Of a stretch of 64,000 nucleotides of DNA, positions 37,291-51,112 are shown piece by piece. The notes beneath the pieces were generated by a model that worked only from the letters and a program-made list of their open reading frames with translations, was not told the origin of the DNA and did not search any database. Positions within the stretch are counted from its first letter, which is position 1, and every line of letters begins with the position of its first letter. This stretch comes from Klebsiella phage ZCKP1. Location of the stretch: sequence record MH252123.1, one strand, 5' to 3'. The position numbers were made by a program, and so were the translations under genes.

Positions 37291-37533
37291 TATTTTAACT
37301 TTTTTCATTTTTAGAACAAAGGCGTCACTTTGTAGCACAGAAATAAGGCTCCTACAGCACCGTAGAGAGCCTATTATTTTGTCCTATACAAACCCTTGTC
37401 TTTTTCAGTTTGCATCACTAGGATTCGATCTGAGTGGGTTCCTGAAGGTCTGCCAATAAGATTAAAGGTTATCTCAAATTCCCATTACCTATTATCTCAA
37501 AAATCCCTCAAATTATTTAAACTTTTTAAGAAT

Positions 37534-37580
37534 TTACAAAAGTGAAAGTTGAAAACCAAAATTTAAAGTTTAGGAAAATT
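37534..37580 (+). repeat. ~47-bp direct repeat, copy 1 (TTACAAAAGTGAAAGTTGAAAACCAAAATTTAAAGTTTAGGAAAATT)
   Basis: imperfect copy at 37672..37719. Confidence 0.6.
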
Positions 37581-37671
37581 ATCTTAAAATGTCAGATACA
37601 AAACAAAACTCAAAAGTCAAGGAAAATTTTAAAAATTTTGCGCGCCCACAGTATTTAAAGTTTTTTTGCTT

Positions 37672-37719
37672 TTACAAAAATGAAAGTACAAAAGCAAAAT
37701 TTAAAGTTTACAAAAATTT
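37672..37719 (+). repeat. ~47-bp direct repeat, copy 2 (TTACAAAAATGAAAGTACAAAAGCAAAATTTAAAGTTTACAAAAATTT)
   Basis: matches 37534..37580 with a few substitutions. Confidence 0.6.
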
Positions 37720-37731
37720 ATGCAGATGGGA

Positions 37732-37748
37732 ATGAGAAGAGTTCTCAT
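37732..37748 (+). promoter_or_regulatory. perfect inverted repeat ATGAGAAgagTTCTCAT (operator-like)
   Basis: seen in sequence. Confidence 0.45.
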
Positions 37749-37768
37749 ATGGAAATGCAAATGATAAT
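37748..37768 (+). promoter_or_regulatory. Fur-box-like operator motif copy a (AAATGATAATGATTCGCATTT)
   Basis: matches the Fur consensus core AATGATAATCATT at 12 of 13 positions. Confidence 0.45.
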
Positions 37769-37816
37769 GATTCGCATTTAGGTTTATAAATGAGATTGAT
37801 TCTTATTTGATAAGGT

Positions 37817-37837
37817 AAATGATAATCATTCTCATTT
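37817..37837 (+). promoter_or_regulatory. Fur-box-like operator motif copy b (AAATGATAATCATTCTCATTT)
   Basis: contains the perfect 13-bp palindrome AATGATAATCATT. Confidence 0.5.
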
Positions 37838-38095
37838 AGAAAATGACGCGCAGGGGCGGTGTTTGTCTCGCGCTCCCGTGTCCCCTCGCCATGTAATAAG
37901 AATAACAGATCCAGCCAGGAAAGCAAGCGATTATTTTATCTTTACATTTCTTTACAAATATATAGCGCCCAGCCTACCGGCGATCAACCTTCCAACCAGT
38001 GCCCCTGGTATGTTAGCCCCGCCTTTACGCCGTGGGGTGGCGCTTCCTCTTCTGTATGTAAAACAGTATAAGCCCGATCCCTGGGCTTGTCAAGA

Positions 38096-38362
38096 TTATT
38101 TTTTGTTTTCTTGCCAGGATAGGACACCTAACCAAAAATACATATCGCCCCGCGCCCCTGGTGGGATCTTGCTTTCCCCGCCGCCACTGCAAGCCCATAG
38201 ATAACCATTTGCGAACGTATCAAAATGATCTATCTCTTCCACCTTATGATCGCCCAGGTTGAGAACGGTTTCAACCTTTAAGCCCGTTGCGCTTGCTACC
38301 TGGTGCACCGTGCCGCCTTGCCAGCCCAATGAGTGCATAAGGTGTAATGTAGTATTTGTCAT
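38096..38362 (-). CDS. hypothetical protein, 88 aa; the only minus-strand ORF in the GC-richer segment, doubtful
   Basis: ORF track; weak RBS AAGGGCG. Confidence 0.3.
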   Translation of the reverse strand: MTNTTLHLMHSLGWQGGTVHQVASATGLKVETVLNLGDHKVEEIDHFDTFANGYLWACSGGGESKIPPGARGDMYFWLGVLSWQENKK

Positions 38363-38471
38363 GGTATCGCCCTTTCTTTGATGTGCGCCCTGGTTGGCGC
38401 GGTAGAAAGATGATAGCCCTTTCTTTTATATATAGCAAGCAAAAAGAAAATAAAAAAGATTGAAAAAGTGG

Positions 38472-38500
38472 TTGACGTTCCTCACCTGGTAGCGTAGTAT
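38472..38500 (+). promoter_or_regulatory. sigma70-like promoter P0 (TTGACG-N17-TAGTAT) opening the array; long leader, no hairpin
   Basis: seen in sequence. Confidence 0.5.
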
Positions 38501-38635
38501 TCATCTTGTCGAGGGGGGCGCGGCACAACGACAATAAACAACAGGAGGGCGCAATGTAGGACGGGCAAAGGTGAGGATCTCCATAATCCACCGTCCACCA
38601 ACAAAAAACATCATTCATCACCTGGAGTTAAAATC

Positions 38636-38833
38636 ATGGCAACATTGCACATAGTAGCGAAAGCAGGACAAATCAGCGTCGTGGTAAACGGTTTTACTGA
38701 GTTCAGTCATCCCCAGGATGATCATGAAACGGTTTTATCTTTTATTGATTCCTTGTTAGAAATGGGAGTCATTACAGAAGACCAGCACGCTACAAAATGC
38801 AAGCGCGTTAATCAAATTGCAGGGATAGAATAA
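38636..38833 (+). CDS. array ORF 1, 65 aa
   Basis: promoter P0 plus a 135-nt leader; RBS GGAG. Confidence 0.5.
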   Translation: MATLHIVAKAGQISVVVNGFTEFSHPQDDHETVLSFIDSLLEMGVITEDQHATKCKRVNQIAGIE

Positions 38834-38839
38834 AAAGTA

Positions 38840-38899
38840 TTGACAACAAACAACAACCTGATAAGATGTATCACATAGGGCGGGAAGTGGTTTCCCGCT
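38840..38899 (+). promoter_or_regulatory. promoter and 5' hairpin unit P1: TTGACA-N16-TAAGAT, then GGGCGGGAA-gtggt-TTCCCGC
   Basis: near-consensus -35 and -10; GC hairpin starts 2-3 nt after the predicted +1. Confidence 0.6.
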
Positions 38900-38923
38900 C
38901 GTAACAGAAGAGAGATTATCATC

Positions 38924-39196
38924 ATGGCATCATATAGCGCAACAATGATCGTAGCTGGCACAACTGGTAAACCTATGAGCGGTGGCGGATCTTTCGCTAA
39001 TATCAATATTGACGGGCGTTTATCCCTGGACGCAGCGATCGCCATTGCACGGGAAACATTTAAGAAAGAATGTAATTTCAACAAGCAAGATTATCTCGGT
39101 TTCGCTATTGAAAAAACCGCGCGCTTTGTTGATTATAAAAGCCCGAAAATGGTTGACACTACATTAAAAGCGCAAGATGTAGCGTTTTTGCTTTAA
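38924..39196 (+). CDS. array ORF 2, 90 aa
   Basis: promoter and hairpin unit P1; RBS AGAGAG. Confidence 0.55.
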   Translation: MASYSATMIVAGTTGKPMSGGGSFANINIDGRLSLDAAIAIARETFKKECNFNKQDYLGFAIEKTARFVDYKSPKMVDTTLKAQDVAFLL

Positions 39197-39199
39197 GGC

Positions 39200-39255
39200 T
39201 TGACATTAACGAATAATTTGTTAATATGTTACATAAAGCGGGAATAGTTCCCGCT
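39200..39255 (+). promoter_or_regulatory. unit P2: TTGACA-N16-TAATAT, then AGCGGGAA-tag-TTCCCGCT
   Basis: seen in sequence. Confidence 0.6.
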
Positions 39256-39272
39256 GTTTGTAAGGTGGTAGA

Positions 39273-39530
39273 ATGTTTTACATCAAATTAAAAGGTCACG
39301 TGATCGCGTTCAAAGATAACGCTTTTTACAGATTAGCAAAATATGCGTTAATACATCCCCACTATGTTTATATAAGGGGGCGTGATGAAATAAATATCTT
39401 TGATCAAACAACATGCGAAAACATCGAGATCCGCAAGGTTGGCGTACGTGATTATCGTACATCTTTCTACCCTTGCAAGGATTCAGCAAGTCTTTTTAAA
39501 GTATGCCAATTGTTGAAAAAAGGTGGTTAA
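39273..39530 (+). CDS. array ORF 3, 85 aa
   Basis: unit P2; RBS AAGGTGG. Confidence 0.55.
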   Translation: MFYIKLKGHVIAFKDNAFYRLAKYALIHPHYVYIRGRDEINIFDQTTCENIEIRKVGVRDYRTSFYPCKDSASLFKVCQLLKKGG

Positions 39531-39531
39531 T

Positions 39532-40089
39532 ATGGGCCGCGAATATGTGATCCAGTCTTGGGTAAAACACGAAGCAGATGATCCGCGCATCATTCCCGAT
39601 CATCTTATCGATGAATCCACGGGATATAGCGGTGAGCAAATAGGTAACAGATCAGCACGTAGTAACGGCAACGTAAAAGCGCGCTATGTGCGCCCTGGTT
39701 GGCTGGCAAATGGTAACGCTGATTTATCCAGCGCGGGAGATCCTAGCGACGGCGCGAAAGATAATCCCTTGTACAAAGTTGATCCGGCTTTTCGTGTCCT
39801 GGATGAATACCCCAGCAAGATAGCGGCGCTTGATGAAGCTCTGGAAAGTAAGCGCATCACCTGGACCGCTTACAACATGGCAAAAAACGTACTTGATGGT
39901 AAGCTGATCCAGGCTGAAAGAAAATTAGCCAAAATTGCAGCCATAGCCCAGGAGGAAGACGAGGAGACAACGGAAGAGGAAGAGTACGAAGAGATCCCGC
40001 CGTTGTTGTGTGTTGATGCTTTTCCTGATTATCAGCCGACAGAGGAAGAAAAAAGGATCGCGCTAGAAAACTTTGAAAATAGTCTTTGA
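39532..40089 (+). CDS. array ORF 4, 186 aa, with a strongly acidic C-terminal tail (EEDEETTEEEEYEEIPP)
   Basis: start refined to the ATG after AAAGGTGG; no promoter of its own, so co-transcribed with ORF 3. Confidence 0.5.
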   Translation: MGREYVIQSWVKHEADDPRIIPDHLIDESTGYSGEQIGNRSARSNGNVKARYVRPGWLANGNADLSSAGDPSDGAKDNPLYKVDPAFRVLDEYPSKIAALDEALESKRITWTAYNMAKNVLDGKLIQAERKLAKIAAIAQEEDEETTEEEEYEEIPPLLCVDAFPDYQPTEEEKRIALENFENSL

Positions 40090-40143
40090 CATATCGCCGC
40101 CACTGGCATAATATTTACCACGTAGGGCGGCAATGGTGCCGCT
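40086..40143 (+). promoter_or_regulatory. unit P3: TTGACA-N17-TAATAT, then AGGGCGGCAATGGTGCCGCT
   Basis: seen in sequence. Confidence 0.6.
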
Positions 40144-40171
40144 CATAGTGAAATTATGCAAGAGGTTTACA

Positions 40172-40267
40172 ATGATTAATAAAGAAAATAGCTTGACGGT
40201 TGGAACGATTAACGCTATCATTTTCGCCGTTCCATTTTGGGTTGTAGTAGCGGCTATTATTTTCTAA
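40172..40267 (+). CDS. array micro-ORF, 31 aa hydrophobic peptide (MINKENSLTVGTINAIIFAVPFWVVVAAIIF)
   Basis: sole ORF downstream of unit P3; RBS AAGAGG. Confidence 0.4.
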   Translation: MINKENSLTVGTINAIIFAVPFWVVVAAIIF

Positions 40268-40276
40268 AAAATATTC

Positions 40277-40337
40277 TTGACAACGTTTTTTAATCTGATA
40301 AGATGTATCACATAGGGCGGCGGAATACTTCCCCGCC
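40277..40337 (+). promoter_or_regulatory. unit P4: TTGACA-N16-TAAGAT, then GGGCGGCGGAAtactTCCCCGCC
   Basis: seen in sequence. Confidence 0.6.
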
Positions 40338-40358
40338 AAAACAAAAAAGGGTAACACA

Positions 40359-40721
40359 ATGAGCAAGCAAATCAATACTATCATGTTTAATCTGGTATCT
40401 TTCCGCGATGATATGAAAAATTTACCACGTGAAACGGTTGATATTCATGTTTCAGCTTATCGCGCCCTTATTGATATGTTACCGCTAAAACGTGATCAAC
40501 ATGCCGCTAATATGATGCTTAATGCTATGCTTAAAAAGATGATTCAAACGGATCTTACCCTGGCATATGAGTATCAAGGGCGCTTATATGCAACTTACAA
40601 CAGAGCGGTACCTGGTCTGGGAAGTACTGAAGAGTTGCACGGCTTAAACCTGGATCAAAACACTTGGGATAGTATGCGCCGCGTTATGGTATGGGCCGAA
40701 AGCGGTAAAATTTACGAATAA
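40359..40721 (+). CDS. array ORF, 120 aa
   Basis: unit P4; RBS AAAAGGG. Confidence 0.55.
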   Translation: MSKQINTIMFNLVSFRDDMKNLPRETVDIHVSAYRALIDMLPLKRDQHAANMMLNAMLKKMIQTDLTLAYEYQGRLYATYNRAVPGLGSTEELHGLNLDQNTWDSMRRVMVWAESGKIYE

Positions 40722-40727
40722 AAACGG

Positions 40728-40787
40728 TTGACACTGTTTAAAATTCTAGTATAGTTTACCACATAGGGCGGGAAATGGTTTCCCGCC
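40728..40787 (+). promoter_or_regulatory. unit P5: TTGACA-N16-TATAGT, then GGGCGGGAAatggtTTCCCGCC
   Basis: seen in sequence. Confidence 0.6.
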
Positions 40788-40809
40788 AACAATGAAAAAG
40801 GTTATCATC

Positions 40810-41175
40810 ATGGCTATTAATATTAATGTTTCCTCTTATGCTACCCTGGCTAACACGGCTAAAATTGAATTATCCAGCATTGAGGCGGTGCATATTAGCG
40901 CCCGTCGCTGGTTCCAACAGTCCTACGGTAATACATATTTTTCTTTAATGGTTGACGTTGAGATCGGCGGTAAACTGATCGAGGTGGTTAACGTTCCGTT
41001 TCAATATGGCTATGGTGATCATTTTGATACCGTCGCCCTGGAAGAGTTTAGCAAGGTTATCAACCTGGAGGGCAAAGAGTTTTCACGCGGCGCGTATCTT
41101 TCCCGTTTTTGCCGTGATAATGGGATCGCTGTATACAGTCATGCAAGCGATGTTAAACGTAAAAAAGATTTATAA
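40810..41175 (+). CDS. array ORF, 121 aa (MAININV...)
   Basis: unit P5; start refined to the ATG after AAAAAGG. Confidence 0.55.
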   Translation: MAININVSSYATLANTAKIELSSIEAVHISARRWFQQSYGNTYFSLMVDVEIGGKLIEVVNVPFQYGYGDHFDTVALEEFSKVINLEGKEFSRGAYLSRFCRDNGIAVYSHASDVKRKKDL

Positions 41176-41182
41176 AAAGCAT

Positions 41183-41241
41183 TGACAGCACGAATAAAAA
41201 GAGTAAACTGTATTACATAGAGAGCGGGAACACTTCCCGCC
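41183..41241 (+). promoter_or_regulatory. unit P6: TTGACA-N15-TAAACT, then GCGGGAAcacTTCCCGC
   Basis: seen in sequence. Confidence 0.55.
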
Positions 41242-41264
41242 TCACTGAAAAAGAGAGAAAAATC

Positions 41265-41504
41265 ATGGCTAAATCTAAAATGTACAACGGTCACAAAAAC
41301 AGAAATCATTGGAATGTAAGCCTTTGGATTAATAACGATGAATCGTTATACCGGTTGGCCCAAGATTTTATTAACGCTAATGCTAATCGTAATGATGCGG
41401 CGCGGGATATGATGCTTTTTCTGGAACAAACTGGACAAGATAAAACGCCAGACGGTTTCAAATATAGCACTACTGCGATCCGCGCCGCGATGGTTGGAAT
41501 GTAA
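41265..41504 (+). CDS. array ORF, 79 aa
   Basis: unit P6; RBS AAAGAGAGAAAA. Confidence 0.55.
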   Translation: MAKSKMYNGHKNRNHWNVSLWINNDESLYRLAQDFINANANRNDAARDMMLFLEQTGQDKTPDGFKYSTTAIRAAMVGM

Positions 41505-41512
41505 TAAAAACA

Positions 41513-41572
41513 GTTGACAACGTTTAAAATTAGTGTAAGATGTATCGCATAGGGCGGGAAGTGGTTTCCCGC
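41513..41572 (+). promoter_or_regulatory. unit P7: TTGACA-N16-TAAGAT, then GGGCGGGAAgtggtTTCCCGCC
   Basis: seen in sequence. Confidence 0.6.
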
Positions 41573-41595
41573 CAACAACAGAGAGATTAAAGATT

Positions 41596-41823
41596 ATGGC
41601 TATCAATATTGTTCGCGTATCCGGCACCGTTGGCACTTCCCAGGTTATTGCAGTTGTAACAAACAAAAAGATTAATGATGTATGTGAGATCTTGAATAAG
41701 TGGGCTATTGCTAATTTTGGGAAATATGCAAGCGTCGAGTACATCGAATCCTACCAGGTGCCAACCATCAGCCTAACCGATCTCAACGTTGATCGCCTGT
41801 TATGCCTGGATGAATTGATCTGA
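41596..41823 (+). CDS. array ORF, 75 aa (MAINIV...)
   Basis: unit P7; RBS AGAGAG. Confidence 0.55.
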   Translation: MAINIVRVSGTVGTSQVIAVVTNKKINDVCEILNKWAIANFGKYASVEYIESYQVPTISLTDLNVDRLLCLDELI

Positions 41824-41832
41824 AAAAGATTG

Positions 41833-41889
41833 TTGACACCGGAAAGAAAAAGAGTAAACTGTATTACGTAGGGCGGCAATGGTGCCGCT
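41833..41889 (+). promoter_or_regulatory. unit P8: TTGACA-N16-TAAACT, then AGGGCGGCAATGGTGCCGCT
   Basis: seen in sequence. Confidence 0.6.
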
Positions 41890-41913
41890 CACAACAGAAG
41901 AGAGATTATTACG

Positions 41914-42129
41914 ATGGCTAATATCCGCACACTGTTAAAAAATGCAAGTCAAGTTTTATTTTCAGATGACGAGTATTTCAATAAAGACATTACAGGCGTA
42001 AAAAATCTTAAAGATGTAAAGGATGTGATAGGTATTCGCGGATCTTTACGTAAAGGTGACTACTACGGCAATAAAGTACAATATAAATTAAATCAGTCTT
42101 ATGATTTTACTTTGACAATTATTTCATAA
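41914..42129 (+). CDS. array ORF, 71 aa
   Basis: unit P8. Confidence 0.55.
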   Translation: MANIRTLLKNASQVLFSDDEYFNKDITGVKNLKDVKDVIGIRGSLRKGDYYGNKVQYKLNQSYDFTLTIIS

Positions 42130-42135
42130 AACCGC

Positions 42136-42198
42136 TTGCAATCTTAATAAAATAAAGTAAACTGTATTACATCAAGGCGGCGGAATGGTCCACCGCCT
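42136..42198 (+). promoter_or_regulatory. unit P9: TTGCAA-N16-TAAACT, then GGCGGCGGAAtggtCCACCGCC
   Basis: seen in sequence. Confidence 0.55.
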
Positions 42199-42221
42199 AA
42201 CAAAGAGAAGAGGAAAACACC

Positions 42222-42389
42222 ATGATCACTTTCGCTACCCGTGAAGCCGCTCGCAACGTTGCCCGTAAAGTTAACGCCGCCAACCTGGGCGCTACGCTTA
42301 AAGCCCCGGTGAAAGATGAATCAGGCGCGTGGATCTTTCCTGGTCTGCGTCACGCTGATAAGCTAGGCACTTTAAGCCTTAAAAAATAA
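42222..42389 (+). CDS. array ORF, 55 aa (unlisted; MITFATREAARNVARKVNAANLG...)
   Basis: unit P9; RBS AGAGAAGAGGAAAA; start MITFA shared with the next ORF. Confidence 0.45.
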   Translation: MITFATREAARNVARKVNAANLGATLKAPVKDESGAWIFPGLRHADKLGTLSLKK

Positions 42390-42392
42390 TCG

Positions 42393-42430
42393 TTGACTTT
42401 TCGTTATAGCGCCCATTATAAGGCGCTATA
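42393..42430 (+). promoter_or_regulatory. promoter P10: TTGACT-N17-TTATAA with inverted repeat TATAGCGCC/GGCGCTATA overlapping the -10 (operator-like)
   Basis: seen in sequence. Confidence 0.5.
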
Positions 42431-42462
42431 GAGAAGAGAAACACTACTAACAAGGAAACATC

Positions 42463-42684
42463 ATGATCACTTTCGCTATTGTCGCCGTTGTTGCTGGTCA
42501 GGTTTACATAAACGATACATTCACCACAGAAGACAAGGCCGCAGGAGACATAACCGCCGTTTACAATGAGTGCAAGGCAGTAGAAAGGATGTTAGCGCCT
42601 TGTATGCTAATGAGTGAACGCCAGGACGGGATAACAGTGTTTACTAACATTGAGACAGGGTACCAAATGGTAGTAACAAAATAA
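42463..42684 (+). CDS. array ORF, 73 aa (MITFAIVAVVAG...)
   Basis: unit P10; RBS AAGGAAAC. Confidence 0.5.
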   Translation: MITFAIVAVVAGQVYINDTFTTEDKAAGDITAVYNECKAVERMLAPCMLMSERQDGITVFTNIETGYQMVVTK

Positions 42685-42687
42685 AGC

Positions 42688-42744
42688 TTGACACGGATTT
42701 AATTTTCAGTAAACTGTTACACGTAGGGCGGGAATAGTTCCCGC
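42688..42744 (+). promoter_or_regulatory. unit P11: TTGACA-N16-TAAACT, then AGGGCGGGAAtagTTCCCGCT
   Basis: seen in sequence. Confidence 0.6.
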
Positions 42745-42762
42745 TAAAAAGAGAGAAAAACC

Positions 42763-43116
42763 ATGAAAGCACAAAATGCAATTAAAGAGTACATCCTTGC
42801 CGCTATCGATTTTAATGATTACGGTATTACAACCGAAAAAGAGAAGATCGCGGAATTGATGCGCCGTTTTAATTCCGAGTACTGGTACCCTGATAACCAA
42901 TCACGTTTTAATTATAGTATTGTTAAAGCACTTGCATCATGGTTACAAGGTTTGCCATCAGATATTAATATCGCTTTCGAATATTGGGAAATTGATCGCT
43001 TGTTAACATCCTGGGGATACATTAAAGAGAATAGCAGCGATGATAAAATCCAACGAGAAAGGGAAAATTATTGGCTTTATATTGCAGGCGTGATCCTTGC
43101 TTGCTCTTATGAATGA
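42763..43116 (+). CDS. array ORF, 117 aa
   Basis: unit P11; RBS AAAGAGAGAAAA. Confidence 0.55.
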   Translation: MKAQNAIKEYILAAIDFNDYGITTEKEKIAELMRRFNSEYWYPDNQSRFNYSIVKALASWLQGLPSDINIAFEYWEIDRLLTSWGYIKENSSDDKIQRERENYWLYIAGVILACSYE

Positions 43117-43122
43117 TAAACC

Positions 43123-43176
43123 TTGACAATTTTACAAAACAGTTAAAATTAATAATATAGCGGCAATGGTGCCGCT
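43123..43176 (+). promoter_or_regulatory. unit P12: TTGACA (or TTTACA-N16-TAATAT), then AGCGGCAATGGTGCCGCT; the -10 assignment is ambiguous
   Basis: seen in sequence. Confidence 0.45.
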
Positions 43177-43195
43177 CATATAAAGAGGAAACAAA

Positions 43196-43342
43196 ATGAA
43201 TACATCTAATCGCGCAGAAAAAATCCAATCTTCCAAGATCCGCAAGGCCTGGAACGAGGAAGTGATCCGCAAAGGCGACAAGCGCAATAAAACAAAGCGC
43301 GGGAAGAGTGACAAATATAATTGGATGGATTTAGAGGATTAA
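43196..43342 (+). CDS. array ORF, 48 aa, Lys/Arg-rich basic peptide (unlisted)
   Basis: unit P12; RBS AAAGAGGAAAC; followed by intrinsic terminator. Confidence 0.45.
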   Translation: MNTSNRAEKIQSSKIRKAWNEEVIRKGDKRNKTKRGKSDKYNWMDLED

Positions 43343-43348
43343 CATAAC

Positions 43349-43377
43349 AAGGGCGCACCAAGCGCCCTTTCTTTTTA
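43349..43377 (+). terminator. intrinsic terminator T4 within the array (AAGGGCGCaccaaGCGCCCTT plus TCTTTTT)
   Basis: seen in sequence; identical hairpin to T5. Confidence 0.7.
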
Positions 43378-43397
43378 CATGTAGAGGATAAATAAAA

Positions 43398-43583
43398 ATG
43401 ACTTTAAACGAGCTTAAAACAGCCTACAACGCAACGTTAAAAATAGCCGTGCGTTACCGTGACGAATACGGTTTTATTGCGCAGGGCGTGATCCTGGGCT
43501 TTTCTGACGATGGTTTGATCTATGTTGATGCACATCACAACAAGGTTAAACCTGAAAACGTCATTAACATAAAATATCTTTAA
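43398..43583 (+). CDS. array ORF, 61 aa
   Basis: RBS GAGGATAAATAAAA; no promoter of its own (follows terminator T4). Confidence 0.45.
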   Translation: MTLNELKTAYNATLKIAVRYRDEYGFIAQGVILGFSDDGLIYVDAHHNKVKPENVINIKYL

Positions 43584-43589
43584 AAACGG

Positions 43590-43650
43590 TTGACACCATA
43601 ACCGGACCTGTTAAACTGTATTACATCAGGCGGGGGAATAGTTCCCCACC
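43590..43650 (+). promoter_or_regulatory. unit P13: TTGACA-N16-TAAACT, then GGCGGGGGAAtagTTCCCCACC
   Basis: seen in sequence. Confidence 0.6.
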
Positions 43651-43669
43651 ATACAAAAAGGTAAATATT

Positions 43670-43876
43670 ATGATCACCGCAAAACAAGAAAAAATTATTA
43701 TCGACGTTGCAGCCGTTGCCGCTATTGCTATTATTGGATCTTATTATGATACCCGTTTCCCGTCGGCTATGCATGAGATCGCCGCCGTTGCATCGGTTGG
43801 CGTGCTGTTTTACGTTGGTAAACGCTATTTATCACCAATGATTAACAAGCTGACACCGTGGAAAAATAAAGGTTGA
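43670..43876 (+). CDS. array ORF, 68 aa membrane protein
   Basis: unit P13; two TM helices. Confidence 0.5.
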   Translation: MITAKQEKIIIDVAAVAAIAIIGSYYDTRFPSAMHEIAAVASVGVLFYVGKRYLSPMINKLTPWKNKG

Positions 43877-43927
43877 TCCTGTTTTATATTGTGTTATAGT
43901 TATCGTGTAGGGCGGCAATGGTGCCGC
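43873..43927 (+). promoter_or_regulatory. unit P14: TTGATC-N16-TATAGT, then AGGGCGGCAATGGTGCCGC
   Basis: seen in sequence. Confidence 0.55.
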
Positions 43928-43948
43928 GCCCCCTTTGAGGATGAAATC

Positions 43949-44233
43949 ATGAGTAAAGCTAACACCGTGCTAATGTTTTCCCTGGTTAATGATGCCGCTC
44001 GCTTGTCCAACATGACGCAGGAGGGTAACACATTAACGGCAACATTCACCAATAAGCTTAATCGAGTGATCATCATCTCACTGAAAACAGTTAGTAAAGG
44101 CTTTTACTCGTTAGCTTATCATTGGATCACTGATACCAACGAGACAAGCCAAGATTATAGCGCCCCTTTCCCTGAATCAATGGCACGGGAGATCATCGCC
44201 GCCGTTGTAAATGATGGTTTGTTTACTGAATAA
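43949..44233 (+). CDS. array ORF, 94 aa
   Basis: unit P14; start refined to the ATG after GAGGATGAAATC. Confidence 0.5.
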   Translation: MSKANTVLMFSLVNDAARLSNMTQEGNTLTATFTNKLNRVIIISLKTVSKGFYSLAYHWITDTNETSQDYSAPFPESMAREIIAAVVNDGLFTE

Positions 44234-44251
44234 AATAATTTAGAAAAAGGC

Positions 44252-44279
44252 TTGCAATCATTGTCACTATCTTATCAAT
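44252..44279 (+). promoter_or_regulatory. atypical promoter P15: TTGCAA-N16-TATCAA, no hairpin
   Basis: seen in sequence; weak. Confidence 0.3.
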
Positions 44280-44299
44280 CATCTTATAAGGTGCATACC

Positions 44300-44461
44300 A
44301 TGAAAACCGCAGACATTATCAAAGAGATCGCCCTTGCCGCTGACGTTGAGATCGAGGAAGTGATCGCGCTCAATCTTACAGAAAACGATCTGCGCAACTA
44401 TGAAGCGGAAAGCGTGAAAGCAAGCGGCGCGGTCCTGGTGTATGATCCGGCTAACAAGTAA
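44300..44461 (+). CDS. array ORF, 53 aa
   Basis: atypical promoter P15 (no hairpin); RBS AAGGTG. Confidence 0.4.
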   Translation: MKTADIIKEIALAADVEIEEVIALNLTENDLRNYEAESVKASGAVLVYDPANK

Positions 44462-44470
44462 GGGGGTAAC

Positions 44471-44581
44471 ATGAATCCGAAAGATATGCAAGCATGGAAA
44501 GGGTACGACGATCTGAGCGCCTTGCGTAATAAGTCCAGCCGTAACCTTAGACGGTTGGAAGCAAAGAAAAAGAAAAAATAG
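44471..44581 (+). CDS. array micro-ORF, 36 aa basic peptide (unlisted)
   Basis: RBS AAGGGGGTAAC directly after the upstream stop. Confidence 0.35.
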   Translation: MNPKDMQAWKGYDDLSALRNKSSRNLRRLEAKKKKK

Positions 44582-44582
44582 T

Positions 44583-44639
44583 TTGACAAGTCCGCGTAGT
44601 CTGGTAATATGTATCTTGTAGGGCGGCAATGGTGCCGCT
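44583..44639 (+). promoter_or_regulatory. unit P16: TTGACA-N16-TAATAT, then AGGGCGGCAATGGTGCCGCT
   Basis: seen in sequence. Confidence 0.6.
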
Positions 44640-44659
44640 CACAAGAAGAGAGAAAAATC

Positions 44660-44944
44660 ATGAAAATCACAAAAAGCCTAACTAATTATGCAGCACGTCG
44701 CGGATTATGTTTAACCGTTGAAAACTTAGGGAAAGAAGACTTTTTGTGTTTTTGGGAGCTTGAAAATGATTGCGAGTGGATGTTTTCCTATTCTATCTGC
44801 GAAGATCAAAACGGTTGTTTGTTAACCTGGCGCGGTAATATCTATTTACCGGAAGAAATTAAAGAAGAGTTACCAGGTACGATCATGACAGAGAGACAGC
44901 TTAAGGAAGTGATCAATTTTGTAGGGCAAAACATTAAAAAATAA
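44660..44944 (+). CDS. array ORF, 94 aa
   Basis: unit P16; RBS AGAGAGAAAAATC. Confidence 0.55.
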   Translation: MKITKSLTNYAARRGLCLTVENLGKEDFLCFWELENDCEWMFSYSICEDQNGCLLTWRGNIYLPEEIKEELPGTIMTERQLKEVINFVGQNIKK

Positions 44945-44945
44945 T

Positions 44946-45009
44946 TTGACAGTAGGCAAACAACGTAGTAAAGTTTATTACATAGAGCGGCGGAATGGTC
45001 CACCGCTCA
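44946..45009 (+). promoter_or_regulatory. unit P17: TTGACA-N17-TAAAGT, then GAGCGGCGGAAtggtCCACCGCTC
   Basis: seen in sequence. Confidence 0.55.
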
Positions 45010-45029
45010 CAACAGAAGAGAAACAAATC

Positions 45030-45200
45030 ATGATCCCGACTATGTTTTATGTATCGCGCAAAGGTCACAATATTTTTTGGTCTGAAGATTTAAATGAAGC
45101 CATGACGTTTGCCCGTAATCGTGTTGCTATCGGTGGCGTTAACATCACCGTAACCGATGAAAACGGCATTGAATACTATAACGGCGACGATGAAGAGTAA
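45030..45200 (+). CDS. array ORF, 56 aa
   Basis: unit P17; RBS AGAAGAGAAAC. Confidence 0.45.
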   Translation: MIPTMFYVSRKGHNIFWSEDLNEAMTFARNRVAIGGVNITVTDENGIEYYNGDDEE

Positions 45201-45206
45201 TTAATA

Positions 45207-45229
45207 AGGCGGGGAATACTTCCCGCCAC
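45207..45229 (+). other. orphan leader-type hairpin AAGGCGGGGAAtactTCCCGCCAC with no promoter in front
   Basis: same hairpin family as the array leaders; sits directly after the ORF stop at 45200. Confidence 0.45.
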
Positions 45230-45266
45230 GCAGTGAATTTTCCGTTTGGGAAGTAAAAAATAAATC

Positions 45267-45328
45267 TTGACGATAATTTGTTATCTGATAGAATGTATTT
45301 CGTAGGGCGGGGCAATAAGGCAACGCCC
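45267..45328 (+). promoter_or_regulatory. unit P18: TTGACG-N16-TAGAAT, then GGGCG(gggcaataaggcaa)CGCCC (divergent hairpin)
   Basis: seen in sequence. Confidence 0.5.
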
Positions 45329-45346
45329 ATTAATGAGGGTAGAATC

Positions 45347-45451
45347 ATGTTAGAGAAAATTTTCACGGTTGTAATAGTGGGCCTGGCGTTATCGGTTGGA
45401 GTGGTTGCAACTATGGCTAACATGATCCTATCTTCCCACGGTATCGGCTAA
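45347..45451 (+). CDS. array micro-ORF, 34 aa hydrophobic peptide (MLEKIFTVVIVGLALSVGVVATMANMILSSHGIG)
   Basis: unit P18; RBS GAGGGTAGAATC. Confidence 0.4.
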   Translation: MLEKIFTVVIVGLALSVGVVATMANMILSSHGIG

Positions 45452-45461
45452 GGTGAAACAA

Positions 45462-45677
45462 ATGATCACGAATAAGACAGGTAAAACGGAATTTTTACGC
45501 GGCTTGCAAGTTGGTAAACCTGAGATCTGGCATTGTACTAAATCCGCGCATAATGAAATGAAAGATTTTACCGCTACTTTACAACGTGTTAAAATATCTA
45601 TCACACAGAAAAAAGCCTTGTTAGTAGTAGAAAACGAGATCCCGAAAACTATTATTATTGTCGAGCGTACAGCATGA
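45462..45677 (+). CDS. array ORF, 71 aa
   Basis: RBS AAGGTGAAA; co-transcribed with the micro-ORF. Confidence 0.5.
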   Translation: MITNKTGKTEFLRGLQVGKPEIWHCTKSAHNEMKDFTATLQRVKISITQKKALLVVENEIPKTIIIVERTA

Positions 45678-46060
45678 AAACAGAAATCATTATTGAAATC
45701 ATCAACGGTTATAAAGAAGCCTTTATTTTTGCTGAATCAGCAAGGGATCATGAAGGTAATTTTATTGATAACTTAGACGATTATGATTTTTCTCCTAGCG
45801 CGGACGAACGGATCGCCCAGGATGTAACAGCTTTTATTAATGCTAATCTTGCCGCTATCTCTGAGGCAATGAGCGACGGCGCAACAGCCAACCAGATCGG
45901 GAATGATTTACATTTTACCCGTAACGATCACGGCGTAGGCTTTTGGGATCGCCCTGAAATATACACCACTAACACGGCGAACCGCCTAACCAATGCAGCT
46001 AAGTTTATGCCGAACGTGTCGGCTTACATTGGTGAAGATAATTTTATTTATATTGAATAA
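45674..46060 (+). CDS. array ORF, 128 aa
   Basis: ATGA overlap with upstream gene. Confidence 0.5.
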   Translation: MKTEIIIEIINGYKEAFIFAESARDHEGNFIDNLDDYDFSPSADERIAQDVTAFINANLAAISEAMSDGATANQIGNDLHFTRNDHGVGFWDRPEIYTTNTANRLTNAAKFMPNVSAYIGEDNFIYIE

Positions 46061-46066
46061 AAAGTA

Positions 46067-46123
46067 TTGACACAGATCGCCAGTGTGATAATATTTACCA
46101 CGTAGGGCGGCAATGGTGCCGCT
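46067..46123 (+). promoter_or_regulatory. unit P19: TTGACA-N16-TAATAT, then AGGGCGGCAATGGTGCCGCT
   Basis: seen in sequence. Confidence 0.6.
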
Positions 46124-46144
46124 CCCCGAAAAAGGTAAAACATC

Positions 46145-46336
46145 ATGAAAACTATCTCCTACCTGGAATCAAACAACATGTTTTTTGCCCCCGTTGATGA
46201 AATTATCGAGGCTTTAAACAATGAAGAGGGGATCAATGGATTATCTTACGACCAACTTTTACAACTGGTTGCAACAAATGAAAAACTTGCTTACTATGTT
46301 GAAAATTTTGATGAAGCTGTAATCTTTACAAAATAA
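46145..46336 (+). CDS. array ORF, 63 aa
   Basis: unit P19; RBS AAAGGTAAAAC. Confidence 0.55.
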   Translation: MKTISYLESNNMFFAPVDEIIEALNNEEGINGLSYDQLLQLVATNEKLAYYVENFDEAVIFTK

Positions 46337-46339
46337 TCC

Positions 46340-46396
46340 TTGATCTAATCTCTCAGATAACTTATATTTAATGCGTAGGGCGGCAATGGTGCCGCC
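46340..46396 (+). promoter_or_regulatory. unit P20: TTGATC-N17-TATATT, then AGGGCGGCAATGGTGCCGCC
   Basis: seen in sequence. Confidence 0.55.
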
Positions 46397-46414
46397 GATA
46401 ATGAGGAAAACAAA

Positions 46415-46714
46415 ATGGAAACTATCGCTATTGTTACCGTAGAAAAACTGGTTGTTGGTGATGTATTCGCGTTAATGGTGCCTAACAGCAGCAAGCTGGG
46501 CGCTTATGAAGTAATGGATCATAAAAATGAATCATTTGGCGACGGTTGCACAATGGCGGTAAAATCTTTAAGGGATGGAATCATCCGTCAAGCTAACTGG
46601 CACAAAGGGAATCAAGTCGGTTTAATATCAGCTAATTTCTTGCCAGAAGAGCAAACGTTAGACCAACTATCAGGCGGTAAGACGTTAGCCGAACTACTGG
46701 AAACAGCGATCTAA
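46415..46714 (+). CDS. array ORF, 99 aa
   Basis: unit P20; RBS GAGGAAAAC. Confidence 0.55.
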   Translation: METIAIVTVEKLVVGDVFALMVPNSSKLGAYEVMDHKNESFGDGCTMAVKSLRDGIIRQANWHKGNQVGLISANFLPEEQTLDQLSGGKTLAELLETAI

Positions 46715-46721
46715 TCGACAA

Positions 46722-46737
46722 GGGGCGGCAACGCCCC
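46722..46737 (+). other. orphan GC hairpin GGGGCG-gcaa-CGCCCC between array ORFs
   Basis: seen in sequence; no U-tract and no upstream -35/-10. Confidence 0.4.
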
Positions 46738-46767
46738 CATTAAACGCAATAGGAAGAGGATAGACAC

Positions 46768-47058
46768 ATGAAAAAGATGATCGCAGTAGTTGCCCTGGTT
46801 GTTGGTATTAACGCGCCTGTACTGGCTAATGAGTTGCCAGAATCCATCACGCTAACCGATATCAACGCAATAAACCGGATCGGCGTTAATTATCGCCTAT
46901 GCCTTGCCGCTAAAACTTTCCAGGACGGCACGACAGAATACCACGGATTCGAGGGTATCCGCTGCGGTGAGCTTGCACGCGACCTTAAGGAAGATCCAGA
47001 CCTTGAGGCCATACCGATGACCGTAAACGGTAAAGCTTACGTAAACCGCCAACAATGA
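46768..47058 (+). CDS. array ORF, 96 aa exported protein (signal peptide MKKMIAVVALVVGINAPVLA)
   Basis: RBS GGAAGAGGATAG; preceded by an orphan hairpin. Confidence 0.5.
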   Translation: MKKMIAVVALVVGINAPVLANELPESITLTDINAINRIGVNYRLCLAAKTFQDGTTEYHGFEGIRCGELARDLKEDPDLEAIPMTVNGKAYVNRQQ

Positions 47059-47069
47059 GAAAGGTAATC

Positions 47070-47189
47070 ATGACAATGGGGATCATAGTAGCAACGCTGG
47101 CGCTGATCCCCTTCCTGGTTGAATATGTGCTTATTAGTGTTGTCCTGGTAGTCAGTGACTTATTGGAAACGGTTGGCACCTGGTTTTAA
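47070..47189 (+). CDS. array micro-ORF, 39 aa hydrophobic peptide (unlisted)
   Basis: RBS GAGAAAGGTAATC. Confidence 0.35.
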   Translation: MTMGIIVATLALIPFLVEYVLISVVLVVSDLLETVGTWF

Positions 47190-47200
47190 GGAATAATAAA

Positions 47201-47392
47201 ATGAATACAGAACAAGTTAGAAAGGTATTAGCAGCGTTGCGGTATCACAACCATAGCAAGGTAAAGAATGATCCTGATTATGTGGATTCAAGCCTGGAAG
47301 AAGACACATTGCAAGCTATAAGCCATATGCGAGAATTGTTTAAGCGTATGACAGAGAAAAACAGATCTGATTATATAGGTGACGAGATCTAA
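47201..47392 (+). CDS. array ORF, 63 aa
   Basis: RBS AAGGAATAATAAA. Confidence 0.45.
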   Translation: MNTEQVRKVLAALRYHNHSKVKNDPDYVDSSLEEDTLQAISHMRELFKRMTEKNRSDYIGDEI

Positions 47393-47399
47393 AATAGCT

Positions 47400-47456
47400 T
47401 GCACAATGTATCTGATAGTGTAAGATGTATCACGTAGGGCGGCAATGATGCCGCTC
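47400..47456 (+). promoter_or_regulatory. unit P21: TTGCAC-N16-TAAGAT, then AGGGCGGCAATGATGCCGCT (loop variant)
   Basis: seen in sequence. Confidence 0.55.
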
Positions 47457-47476
47457 ACAACTGGAAGGAAAACACC

Positions 47477-47680
47477 ATGACTACAGCTAACCGCCTGATC
47501 GCCGTCCTGAACAAAGCAAAGGCTAACCGCCTGGATGTTCAAATCAAAGAGCAAGCAAATGGCGAGATCCTTGCTACGGTGTCCGATGGCGGTTATGTAT
47601 CGGAATCATTTTTATCAGGGAGCTTAGATCATCTTGTTTGGAAATTAGAAATTATCGTGGAGGATATGCAAATCATCTAA
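47477..47680 (+). CDS. array ORF, 67 aa
   Basis: unit P21; followed by terminator T6. Confidence 0.55.
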   Translation: MTTANRLIAVLNKAKANRLDVQIKEQANGEILATVSDGGYVSESFLSGSLDHLVWKLEIIVEDMQII

Positions 47681-47688
47681 TCTTTACA

Positions 47689-47720
47689 AAAACAGGGCTT
47701 GCTTTTGTCCTGTTTTTTGT
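47689..47720 (+). terminator. intrinsic terminator T6 (ACAGGGCttgcttttGTCCTGT plus TTTTTGTT)
   Basis: seen in sequence. Confidence 0.55.
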
Positions 47721-47855: not shown

Positions 47856-47884
47856 TTGACACCGGATCACGCTTACATTATCAT
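47856..47884 (+). promoter_or_regulatory. promoter P22: TTGACA-N17-TATCAT with a decayed hairpin remnant (TAGGGCaaatc)
   Basis: seen in sequence. Confidence 0.5.
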
Positions 47885-47930
47885 TTATCACGTAGGGCAA
47901 ATCATTTTAAACGGTAAACGAGGAATCACC

Positions 47931-48314
47931 ATGAGCAATATCATCAACCTGGCAGCGACTGTAAACGGTAAAGACTTTAACGGCGCTGTAGACCGTGATC
48001 CTATGTGGTGCTTGTCAGTGTTTAAAGGCGACCTGGTTGAAGTTAGAACAACCGAAGGTTATAGCGACGATTATAAATGCGAGATTCATTTACATAATTG
48101 GTACACGGGTAAAACTTATGCGCTGAATCACGCGTTTATCGGAAAAATCGAATATCGTGAGATGATCGACGAAGAAACGGGGCAAGATTTTAGCGAAAAC
48201 GTTTATATTCGTTCAGAAACATTAGCCGAACGTTTGATCGAGAAAATGAAAGCAAAAAATAAAATTAATTTATCTCATTGGATTGATATAACAAACGATC
48301 CAGCTTATCAATAA
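47931..48314 (+). CDS. array ORF, 127 aa; last gene of the array
   Basis: promoter P22; start refined to the ATG after AACGAGGAATCACC; followed by terminator T5. Confidence 0.5.
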   Translation: MSNIINLAATVNGKDFNGAVDRDPMWCLSVFKGDLVEVRTTEGYSDDYKCEIHLHNWYTGKTYALNHAFIGKIEYREMIDEETGQDFSENVYIRSETLAERLIEKMKAKNKINLSHWIDITNDPAYQ

Positions 48315-48328
48315 ATAACATTTCATAC

Positions 48329-48357
48329 CAGGGCGCACCAAGCGCCCTTTCTTTTTG
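48329..48357 (+). terminator. intrinsic terminator T5 closing the array (CAGGGCGCaccaaGCGCCCTT plus TCTTTTTG); duplicate of T4
   Basis: seen in sequence. Confidence 0.7.
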
Positions 48358-49316
48358 CCCGAACAATGTTGATAGATTCCGCCTATGGAAAACAGACACA
48401 GAACAAAACTGAATAAATAGCGGTATCAAGCTAATCAACCATTAAACGAATAACCATACCTCCCAGGGTAACAGGCTGTTAGAGAGCCATTTATAGCGGT
48501 TAAAATCGATCAACAACCAACAACAAACTATCAAAAACACCCTTTTACCTCCTTTCCAGTGCAATGATAACCATTATCATCTATCCATGTTTATCTATGC
48601 AATATAAGTGCATAACTATAATGTTGATAACAGTTCGCAACAACTAACTAACCAACAACCTAAAACAATAAGCAAACTAATCATAATCAAAGGAATAATA
48701 GCAAGATGATTGATAACGACAAACAATCAAACCATGATGAATACTAAGCAAGATAACGATAACACGACAAAACAACCAACTAACGAACAATAACAAACGA
48801 AACCATTAAAATAATAACTATTAGCAAAATAGTGCCTGAATGAAATCATTACAAAACGAATCATTCACAGAGTCATCATTAGCACGCTATGCCGGACACA
48901 TAGCGAGCTAATAATAAGCCAACTACACCCCAACAATCATAACCATCGGTGACGGTTATTTCTTGTTATTGCGTAGCTTGCAATAATTGCAAGCGTAATT
49001 ACGCTTACACTTATTGCGCTGGCTTATTATTAGCATTATATGTAATTACCAAGATCATAACATTAGCGCAATAACAATAATCATTGTGGTAATTACATAA
49101 GGAAACAATTAGCATAGCAATAATTATGGGGGCAATGGGAGGATGATTATCATCATTCCGATACATTGCACACTATGCACATAATAGAATAAAAGTCAAT
49201 AATTTTGGGGGCGAAATGTTACCGCCACAGGCGGGAATGTTGAGCAAGTTCTCTTAAACGTAAATAAAATCAGAAAATTCTTGATTTATTTTAGTTTTTA
49301 TGTTAATAAACGTTTA

Positions 49317-49337
49317 AATAATAATCATTCTCATATA
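49317..49337 (+). promoter_or_regulatory. Fur-box-like operator motif copy c (AAATAATAATCATTCTCATAT)
   Basis: 12 of 13 match to the palindrome; shares the ATCATTCTCAT extension with copy b. Confidence 0.45.
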
Positions 49338-49495
49338 AATAATAGTCTGCTTGTCATGAGCGGGATTAGTTGACAATGTTCCGTCATATGATGAAGTTGC
49401 CAAACCATTGATAAATAAGCGTTTGTGTGATTTATAATCAAGTGGCCCACCTTGTCGCTATGTTGGCATAAGCCTTGCATAAGTCATTGAATACG

Positions 49496-49520
49496 AATGA
49501 TAATTATTCTCATTCGCATG
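49496..49520 (+). promoter_or_regulatory. Fur-box-like operator motif copy d (GAATGATAATTATTCTCATTCGCAT)
   Basis: 12 of 13 match; followed by TGAGAA, giving the inverted pair TTCTCA...TGAGAA. Confidence 0.45.
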
Positions 49521-51109: not shown

Positions 51110-51112
51110 AGG

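Follow-up and report, generated by a model that had tools for sequence, protein, structure and literature searches.

Leader hairpins in recombining promoter cassettes of Klebsiella phage ZCKP1 and its relatives: candidate protectors of early mRNAs

The DNA analysed here is a 64,000-nucleotide (nt) stretch of Klebsiella phage ZCKP1 (sequence record MH252123.1; henceforth the window), in which a succession of short genes between 38840 and 47479 is preceded, gene after gene, by a promoter and a small GC-rich hairpin. About 22 of the roughly 34 GC-rich hairpin loci of the window fall inside this 8.6-kb stretch. A previous reading of the letters of this DNA (the sequence-only reading) had placed these hairpins at predicted transcript 5' ends, which raises the question of whether a transcribed 5' hairpin protects phage early mRNAs while the decay of host mRNA is accelerated. 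From the sequence comparisons below we regard it as probable, on balance, that the hairpin is a protective element of the 5' leader, carried by a recombinogenic promoter cassette. The anatomy of the cassette, its conservation across genera, the selection on pairing within the hairpin, the lack of terminator features and the recombination junctions are direct observations of this analysis.

Reading and scanning of the sequence recovered 19 units of a sigma-70-type promoter plus a hairpin between 38840 and 47479, all of which share a single grammar. Each opens with an A-rich tract that contains the stop codon of the upstream gene, followed by the -35 element (TTGACA in 14 of the 19), a spacer of 15–17 nt and a -10 hexamer (TAAGAT, TAAACT, TAATAT and similar forms, within 2 mismatches and frequently with an extended -10 TG). 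Beyond the -10 come 9–12 nt ending in CAC-R-TAG, the GC hairpin, a purine-rich leader of 17–27 nt and the ATG. The stems comprise 6–10 base pairs (bp) and the loops mostly 3–5 nt; the sequence-only reading had correctly described GC stem-loops, and all the variants that it named are present, while its ranges of 6–8 bp and 4–6 nt were slightly too narrow. At least 8 stem or arm classes occur side by side in this one genome. The loops vary freely (ATGG, ATAG, ACGG, ATGA, CTAT, TAG, CAC, TAC and GTGGT). The repeated 20-mer AGGGCGGCAATGGTGCCGCT is found exactly on the plus strand at 40124, 41870, 44620 and 46104 (n=4), with only the last base changed at 43909 and 46377, with one loop base changed at 47436, and with two mismatches at 43157; shuffled sequence yielded 0 matches to it. 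The four exact units and three near-copies thus stand where they had been reported, and the accompanying claim of at least seven exact copies has to be reduced to four exact copies and three with one base different.

Folding energies of the leaders range from -12.5 to -18 kcal/mol (z-scores between -1.9 and -4.2), and the predicted leaders consist of a single 5' hairpin with the Shine-Dalgarno region left unpaired. The conserved Y-R step of CAC-[A/G]-TAGGG falls 7–8 nt past the -10, which would place the first base of the stem at about +4, in keeping with the previously proposed position just after the predicted +1 and compatible with the layout of a 5'-terminal protective stem-loop; in variants with a G start followed by CAC even the first two nucleotides are predicted to be paired. 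Two further hairpins, at 45208–45227 and 46722–46737, are promoter-less, as had been noted earlier, and the distance from such hairpins to the next ATG (19–30 nt) is similar to that in the promoter-bearing units. Other promoters of the window that lead long operons, such as 31010(-), 31299(+), 10009(-) and 2486(-), have no hairpin. No Rfam family was detected in the window at gathering thresholds, and a tRNA search of the window found none.

Pairing was analysed in a sample comprising the window and 11 related loci, which contributed 213 promoter-anchored instances reducible to 71 distinct hairpins. The first paired base lies 9–11 nt past the -10 in 158 of the instances, and the G-rich arm is the 5' arm in 65 of the 71 distinct hairpins. 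Alignments of the units with MAFFT placed the 3' arms out of register, with stem lengths differing, and for this reason were replaced by loop-centred gapless alignments combined with a random-substitution null implemented in Python. In these, standard pairs occupy 89% of the cells for hairpins with odd loops and 81% for those with 4-nt loops; sliding the 3' partner by 1–2 columns lowers pairing to 36–63%, and several column pairs carry both G-C and C-G. Among orthologues, namely hairpins before the same downstream gene in different phages, 20 of 28 substitutions are in unpaired positions, which constitute 25% of the positions, and the changes at paired positions are switches among A-U, G.U and G-C or repairs of mismatches. 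Transitions in the stems keep pairing on the sense strand only. Taken together, the orthologue substitutions change the folding free energy by -4.0 kcal/mol, where equally many random ones give +60.8 +/- 10.7, and 0 of 2000 random sets were as good. Of the distinct hairpins, 43 fold more stably as sense RNA and 13 as antisense, the antisense-favoured exceptions being a class with a C.A mismatch that becomes a G.U pair on the other strand. Even the hairpin before the terC gene differs between the window and phage phAPEC8 (9 versus 7 pairs, with a different loop as well), and both versions fold stably. Because the orthologue substitutions avoid the stems or keep pairing while the loops vary, these comparisons point to selection on structure, and not on a sequence recognized by a protein. 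The sequence-only reading had proposed that conservation of the DNA sequence without co-variation would speak against its case; instead, stems differ between units and genera with pairing kept. Stem-loops of the ompA type are likewise defined by structure and not by sequence, and here pairing persists while both stems and loops vary within and between genera.

The region extends well beyond this one phage. Bases 38600–47700 match 261 phage records, the closest of which (about 94–97% identity) are members of Phapecoctavirus (phAPEC8-like, Stephanstirmvirinae), such as tuntematon, Ro121c4YLVW, ESCO13 and Mt1B1_P17. The window itself belongs to a Phapecoctavirus genome, that of a lytic coliphage of the rV5/phAPEC8 type. 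In these Phapecoctavirus records the same region is occupied by some 30 small genes annotated 'hypothetical protein', all of them set apart by individual intergenic spacers. A survey of the whole phAPEC8 genome, assembled from four loci, uncovered 15 units of a strong promoter and a family hairpin, all in the same orientation as the downstream gene. Fourteen of these are in a ~9-kb region of ORFan genes that straddles the record ends and the 15th is upstream of a TerC-family gene (annotated 'membrane protein'), with 0 promoter-plus-hairpin units in the replication, nucleotide-metabolism and structural modules. The only unit of the window outside the ORFan region is similarly placed, on the minus strand at 16653–16734 (-35 16734–16729, hairpin 16694–16673 with sequence GCGGGGGGAATAGTTCCCCCGC, ATG 16655), before a gene that Pfam identifies as TerC (PF03741, E = 3e-40), which bears out the copy that had been reported there; the orthologous hairpin of phAPEC8 is GCGGGGAGTGGTTCCCCGC. 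The cassette is also found in phi92 (Justusliebigvirus), FV3 (Vequintavirus) and the Salmonella phage PVP-SE1 (Seunavirus), where the stem is still reached 9–11 nt past the -10 but can have quite different arms (GGGGCAA/TTGCCCC, GGGGAG/CTCCCC, AGGCGGCA/TGCCGCCT and GGCCGGGG/CCCCGGTC). One 91-nt unit used as a query retrieved 637 places in 152 phage records, and no match to the unit was obtained in 5,426 complete E. coli genomes.

A part of this family is already present in the public annotation under another name. The RefSeq record of phAPEC8 (NC_020079) contains, at 143712–147561 and 556–3221, ten 20-nt features under the label 'putative promoter determined with PHIRE' that are the same 20-mers ([G/A]TAGGGCGGCAATGGTGCCG, GTAGGGCGGGAATAGTTCCC and ATAAAGCGGGAATAGTTCCC), two of them directly after a feature labelled 'host dependent promoter determined with MEME'. 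This annotation records no hairpin, no fixed position behind a sigma-70 promoter and no role at indel junctions. The repeat was thus detected as early as 2012 but filed as a promoter, a label that probably misnames a transcribed leader hairpin. In the other records examined beside NC_020079 the repeat is unannotated, and full-text searches of the literature on promoter-early stem-loops (PeSLs), phAPEC8, Phapecoctavirus and Stephanstirmvirinae returned no account of these hairpins.

A mechanism that would account for these features begins with a cassette in which an A-rich tract and a near-consensus sigma-70 promoter lead into the GC-rich hairpin, after which come an unpaired, purine-rich Shine-Dalgarno region and a single small ORFan gene. 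The predicted start point of host RNA polymerase is the R of RTAGGGCGG. Transcription from there would put the hairpin at the very 5' end of the mRNA, with 0–4 unpaired nt before the stem, which is the spacing that promoter geometry gives if +1 is this R, 7–8 nt past the -10. It is well established that 5'-terminal stem-loops stabilize E. coli mRNAs (ompA-type stabilizers); sequestration of the 5' end by the hairpin may similarly hinder the 5'-end-dependent decay that involves RppH and RNase E. The hairpin would also keep the downstream ribosome-binding site clear of upstream pairing, and so act as an insulator. We infer both the transcription start site and the stabilizing or insulating effect from this arrangement. 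The promoter-less copies might perform the same job for processed or read-through transcripts, a role that their distance to the ATG fits, or might form a barrier to 3' exonucleases for the upstream gene. A job at the RNA level is the most likely and the most economical function, because pairing is required, the distance from the predicted start site is fixed and short, the polarity is constant and the ribosome site is open.

Several considerations weigh against this interpretation. The comparison of sense and antisense strands is supportive only, and is not clean, because the class GGCGG-C-GGA...TCC-A-CCGCC with its C.A mismatch would pair better as antisense. The copies are paralogues that exchange sequence, and hence the 'distinct hairpins' are not independent events; the fixed spacing could derive in part from common descent. 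Selection on pairing would look alike for a hairpin of RNA and for one extruded in single-stranded DNA. The 5'-terminal position is a deduction from promoter geometry, and the literature searched on this phage group yielded no transcription start site, RNA 5'- or 3'-end or half-life data. With about three unpaired nucleotides the end may remain a substrate of RppH, in which case protection would be partial. As regards the recombinogenic side of the cassette, hairpin-internal junctions account for 2 of about 9 indel sites, and several of the others are plain microhomology deletions.

Those junctions were read from blastn comparisons of the window with eight relatives, which revealed 5–10 breaks of colinearity per relative within 38.6–48 kb, often with overlapping query coordinates, a signature of exchange between repeats. 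Five relatives are without the gene at 46145–46336 and have one chimeric unit, in which the promoter is that of the unit at 46067 and the leader that of the unit at 46340; since GTAGGGCGGCAATGGTGCCGC is the sole sequence common to these two units, the crossover lies inside the hairpin. In all eight relatives a gene of about 250–260 bp is situated between two promoter-less hairpins (GGGGCGGCAACGCCCC and GGGCGGTAACGCCCCC in P3322), and at 46722 in the window the two hairpins of the relatives are fused to a single copy with an overlap of 11–19 nt. Crossover junctions inside hairpins directly support the alternative of a recombination module that the sequence-only reading had raised. Elsewhere, two junctions are in the leader or at the start codon, one is in the promoter spacer and has left an orphan -35 at 44253, one is at the 3' edge of the promoter-less hairpin 45208, and two are plain microhomology events at stop codons.

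Exchange on a smaller scale is also apparent. Orthologues of gene 38924 share identical promoters and leaders but differ in their hairpin tops, of which there are four or five kinds; the exchanged patch runs between the conserved GGGCGG and CCGC. The hairpin class before a given gene also differs between phages. Such swapping of hairpin tops between units, along with unequal crossing-over, accounts for the near-identical 20-mers without a factor that reads their sequence. Being the longest sequence common to neighbouring cassettes, the hairpin acts as a site of homologous exchange: through crossovers within it entire gene cassettes are gained or lost, and conversion over short patches homogenizes the copies. 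The role in recombination is evident from the comparison of phages, and is probably a consequence of the repeats and not the reason for their existence.

The closest precedents for the proposed function are the 5'-terminal stabilizing stem-loops of E. coli mRNAs, of the type in the ompA 5' untranslated region (UTR), reportedly described by Emory, Bouvet and Belasco in 1992. The phage hairpins resemble these in forming a stable hairpin a few nucleotides from the (predicted) 5' end, in their independence of sequence and in the open ribosome-binding region that follows; they differ in recurring as an exchangeable module at some 20 promoters within a single phage genome, and in that their 5' end is a predicted one. 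REP-type and other intercistronic hairpins block 3' exonucleases. As with those elements, the phage hairpins are GC-rich and intergenic between tandem genes, and the two promoter-less copies stand 7 nt past a stop codon as would a 3' stabilizer, but their sequences are unrelated to REP. Promoter-coupled terminators likewise have GC-rich hairpins in the gaps between tandem genes, and in them the hairpin acts as the -35 and the T-tract as the spacer (Fletcher et al. 2026 preprint, 10.64898/2026.08.19.745784); this candidate was rejected on layout, as the hairpin here follows the -10 and lacks a T-tract.

In overall organization the cassettes come nearest to the PeSL cassettes of the T4-like phages RB49/phi1, PST/T4 and nt-1/KVP40 (Arbiol 2010, PMC2839356; Comeau 2014, PMC4122927). 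Both combine a near-consensus sigma-70 early promoter, behind an AT-rich tract holding the upstream stop codon, with a stem-loop of a G-run and a C-run, a Shine-Dalgarno sequence and the start of a small ORFan gene; both are concentrated in a hyperplastic region of ORFan genes, have junctions of indels or replacements within them or next to them, and include decayed 'half' cassettes that adjoin indels. However, the present lineage is Stephanstirmvirinae/Vequintavirinae and not T4-like, and the stem-loop has a fixed place downstream of the -10 and the predicted start, within its own mRNA, whereas that of the PeSLs mostly precedes the promoter, lies within it or overlaps it. The PeSL stem-loops have, moreover, been described as terminators (a 'composite promoter-terminator motif'), a signature that the lack of a T-tract denies to the hairpins of the window. 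These differences in lineage, in the position of the stem-loop within its own transcript and in terminator signature are the reason why we view the phage cassettes as a variation on the PeSL theme and not as members of the PeSLs.

The same junctions invite a reading in which the hairpins act on the level of DNA only, as recombination linkers or as selfish mobile regulatory cassettes, and have no role in RNA, the inverted repeat being mere homology or the target of a recombination nuclease that drives the shuffling of cassettes. The crossovers inside hairpins and the confinement of short-patch exchange between GGGCGG and CCGC agree with this, and PeSL-mediated shuffling and mini-circles in RB49/phi1 provide a precedent (PMC2839356). 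Yet homology alone would conserve identity and not pairing, distant genera keep the hairpin spacing with unrelated stems, substitutions keep pairing through G.U on the sense strand, and the majority of the junctions bypass the hairpin; we therefore consider this reading rather unlikely. A little less probable still, and speculative, is the idea that the hairpins are a common handle by which one trans-acting factor reaches all the early ORFan cassettes, or the target of a structure-specific nuclease: a phage or host RNA-binding protein or endonuclease could time the shut-off or processing of the mRNAs, or a nuclease acting on the extruded DNA hairpin could make cassette shuffling programmed and not accidental. 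Termination or attenuation of transcription from the upstream cassette, insulating each gene as proposed for the PeSLs, is suggested by the intergenic position and GC-richness of the hairpins and by the reduced read-through that PeSL stem-loops produce in a lacZ assay (PMC2839356). But on neither strand does a T-tract follow any family hairpin (examples of the tails are CACAACAGA, AACAACAGA and AAAAAGAGA), unlike the canonical terminators of the same region at 43349–43369, 47688–47717 and 48330–48348 (n=3). Since no copy has one, an intrinsic terminator is ruled out as far as sequence can decide; and as each hairpin lies downstream of the predicted start site of its own cassette, where it would attenuate its own gene, the reading as a whole is very unlikely.

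The strict identity of the 20-mers had led the sequence-only reading to a dedicated RNA-binding factor. In this form the hairpin with its 5' UAG flank would be the recognition site of a trans-acting factor that co-regulates the early ORFan mRNAs (a phage RNA-binding regulator, a processing endonuclease or an antiterminator), and the conserved stem base (GCGG...CCGC), the RTAG flank, the near-identity of the 20-mers and the G-rich 5' arm of 65 of the 71 distinct hairpins are what it would predict. Loops, stem length and upper-stem sequence nevertheless vary within one genome, across at least 8 stem classes, PVP-SE1 and FV3 have other stem bases, and recombination and conversion account better for the identity, which makes such a site distinctly unlikely. 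For an antiterminator in particular nothing was found in favour: there is one short gene per unit with no terminators to override, and the hairpins are unrelated to the few canonical terminators, 3 in 9 kb. The variable loops and the absence of a boxA-like element and of an Rfam match likewise separate the hairpins from antitermination RNAs of the nut/boxB or put type. Most improbable of all is that the 20-mer is a phage-specific promoter, as its label in NC_020079 ('putative promoter determined with PHIRE') has it, or a palindromic operator for a repressor of the early promoters, in spite of an inverted repeat centred near +14, a classic operator position. A stand-alone promoter is ruled out in that the hairpin always stands at a fixed distance behind a near-consensus sigma-70 promoter, 17–27 nt from the ATG, with no well-placed -10-like element, and promoter-less copies occur inside operon-like gene pairs. 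An operator is ruled out by the presence, in one genome, of at least 8 arm sequences with arms of 6–10 bp and spacers of 3–5 nt, unequal in length and unreadable by one DNA-binding dimer, and of G.T positions in the arms, which are asymmetric in duplex DNA. A downstream GATTAT was also tried as the -10 of a middle promoter activated at the hairpin, and was rejected as it stands 3–8 nt from the ATG and is missing from many units.

The family of hairpins behind these promoters is a real, widespread and mechanistically interesting finding that does not amount to a new category, since a public record had already marked the motif and a precedent for the concept has been published. Phages of the rV5/phAPEC8 type are widely isolated and are therapeutic candidates, and functions in host takeover and anti-defence are expected among their ORFan early genes. 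Once the cassette is recognized, the promoters and leaders of some 20 genes in each genome can be annotated precisely, across at least 150 sequenced phages, and the 'promoter' label in RefSeq is corrected. The cassettes also explain the mosaic gain and loss of early ORFan genes, extending modular shuffling of the PeSL type beyond the T4-like phages. For engineering, they point to natural insulated insertion sites and compact parts consisting of promoter, hairpin and ribosome-binding site.

Taken in order along the plus strand, the first unit (38840–38926) has its -35 at 38840, -10 at 38862–38867, hairpin at 38878–38900 (GGGCGGGAAGTGGTTTCCCGCTC) and ATG at 38924. It is followed by the units at 39200–39275 (hairpin 39237–39255, AGCGGGAATAGTTCCCGCT; ATG 39273), 40086–40174 (hairpin 40125–40144, GGGCGGCAATGGTGCCGCTC, an exact 20-mer; ATG 40172) and 40277–40361 (hairpin 40316–40337, GGCGGCGGAATACTTCCCCGCC, with one bulged C; ATG 40359). 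In the hairpin at 40125 the ATG of an AATGGT loop opens a spurious ORF (open reading frame) of 44 amino acids (40133–40267), in frame with the real 31-amino-acid gene starting at 40172, and gene callers could mis-start there; a genuine mini-ORF start at this loop ATG was rejected, as other loop variants have no ATG and no Shine-Dalgarno sequence stands before it. The unit at 40728–40812 (hairpin 40767–40787, GGCGGGAAATGGTTTCCCGCC; probable ATG 40810) is the site of a one-gene indel relative to other phages, with the junction at 40780–40817. Next come 41182–41267 (hairpin 41220–41243, GAGAGCGGGAACACTTCCCGCCTC; ATG 41265), 41514–41598 (hairpin 41553–41573, GGCGGGAAGTGGTTTCCCGCC; ATG 41596), 41833–41916 (hairpin 41871–41890, exact 20-mer; ATG 41914) and 42136–42224, the last with -35 TTGCAA and a hairpin containing a C.A mismatch (42175–42198, AGGCGGCGGAATGGTCCACCGCCT; ATG 42222). 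A related unit at 42392–42465 has another layout: its hairpin, ATAGCGCC-cattataa-GGCGCTAT at 42405–42430, overlaps the -10 (TTATAA) and encloses it in the loop, as in the commoner PeSL subclasses of RB49, and an indel junction lies in its UTR at 42434–42456.

Further along are the units at 42688–42765 (hairpin 42727–42745, GGCGGGAATAGTTCCCGCT; ATG 42763), 43123–43198 (hairpin 43159–43176, AGCGGCAATGGTGCCGCT; ATG 43196), 43590–43672 (hairpin 43629–43650, GGCGGGGGAATAGTTCCCCACC, with a C.A mismatch; ATG 43670) and 43873–43951 (-35 TTGATC; hairpin 43910–43930, the 20-mer with last base G; ATG 43949). A remnant at 44253–44302 retains only the -35 (TTGCAA) beside a deletion junction at 44258–44262, where relatives have the -10, the hairpin and an extra gene. 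The units at 44583–44662 (hairpin 44621–44640, exact 20-mer; ATG 44660) and 44946–45032 (hairpin 44985–45008, GAGCGGCGGAATGGTCCACCGCTC; ATG 45030) precede the promoter-less hairpin at 45208–45227 (GGCGGGGAATACTTCCCGCC), which is 7 nt past the stop codon of the upstream gene; directly 3' of it relatives have a small ORF of 116 bp, and the junction is at 45221–45227. The unit at 45267–45349 has -35 TTGACG and an irregular hairpin with an internal loop (45305–45328, GGGCGGGGCAATAAGGCAACGCCC; ATG 45347). The left and right partners of the hairpin-to-hairpin crossover are the units at 46067–46147 (hairpin 46105–46124, exact 20-mer; ATG 46145) and 46340–46417 (-35 TTGATC; hairpin 46379–46396, GGCGGCAATGGTGCCGCC; ATG 46415). 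They are followed by the promoter-less hairpin GGGGCGGCAACGCCCC at 46722–46737, the single fused or chimeric copy of the window, by the unit at 47399–47479 (-35 TTGCAC; hairpin 47437–47456 with loop variant ATGA; ATG 47477) and by a decayed unit at 47856–47933 that keeps a consensus promoter and GTAGGGC without a hairpin.

Some observations concern the surroundings of the cassettes and the records in which they occur. The coliphages of this group have near-identical counterparts in nineteen records named 'Campylobacter phage' (for example B15, 95.6% identity), in Pseudomonas phage PsgM04F and in an Acinetobacter phage, whose host labels look doubtful. The terminators at 43349–43369 and 48330–48348 share the 19-mer AGGGCGCACCAAGCGCCCT and a T-tract; as homology with several relatives resumes exactly at 48331, this repeated terminator seems to be an exchange point as well. 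No cassettes are present in the window past ~48 kb (48000–64000). In phAPEC8 a second block of small genes, of about 17 kb (7022–23743), is tightly packed, with almost no spacers and no cassettes, and the two ORFan regions thus contrast in expression architecture. Just upstream of the cassette region, the window contains about 1.3 kb without long ORFs (37300–38640), at a position matching a 'repeat_region' marked in the tuntematon record. Within it there is an AT-rich direct repeat pair of 72 nt (37509/37647), then an array of the palindromic AAATGAnAATnATTCnCATTT with a 29-nt period (37731–37842), then a GC-rich part with small hairpins and a minus-strand ORF of 88 amino acids behind a near-consensus promoter at 38093(-). 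This region could represent an origin or an array of regulator-binding sites.

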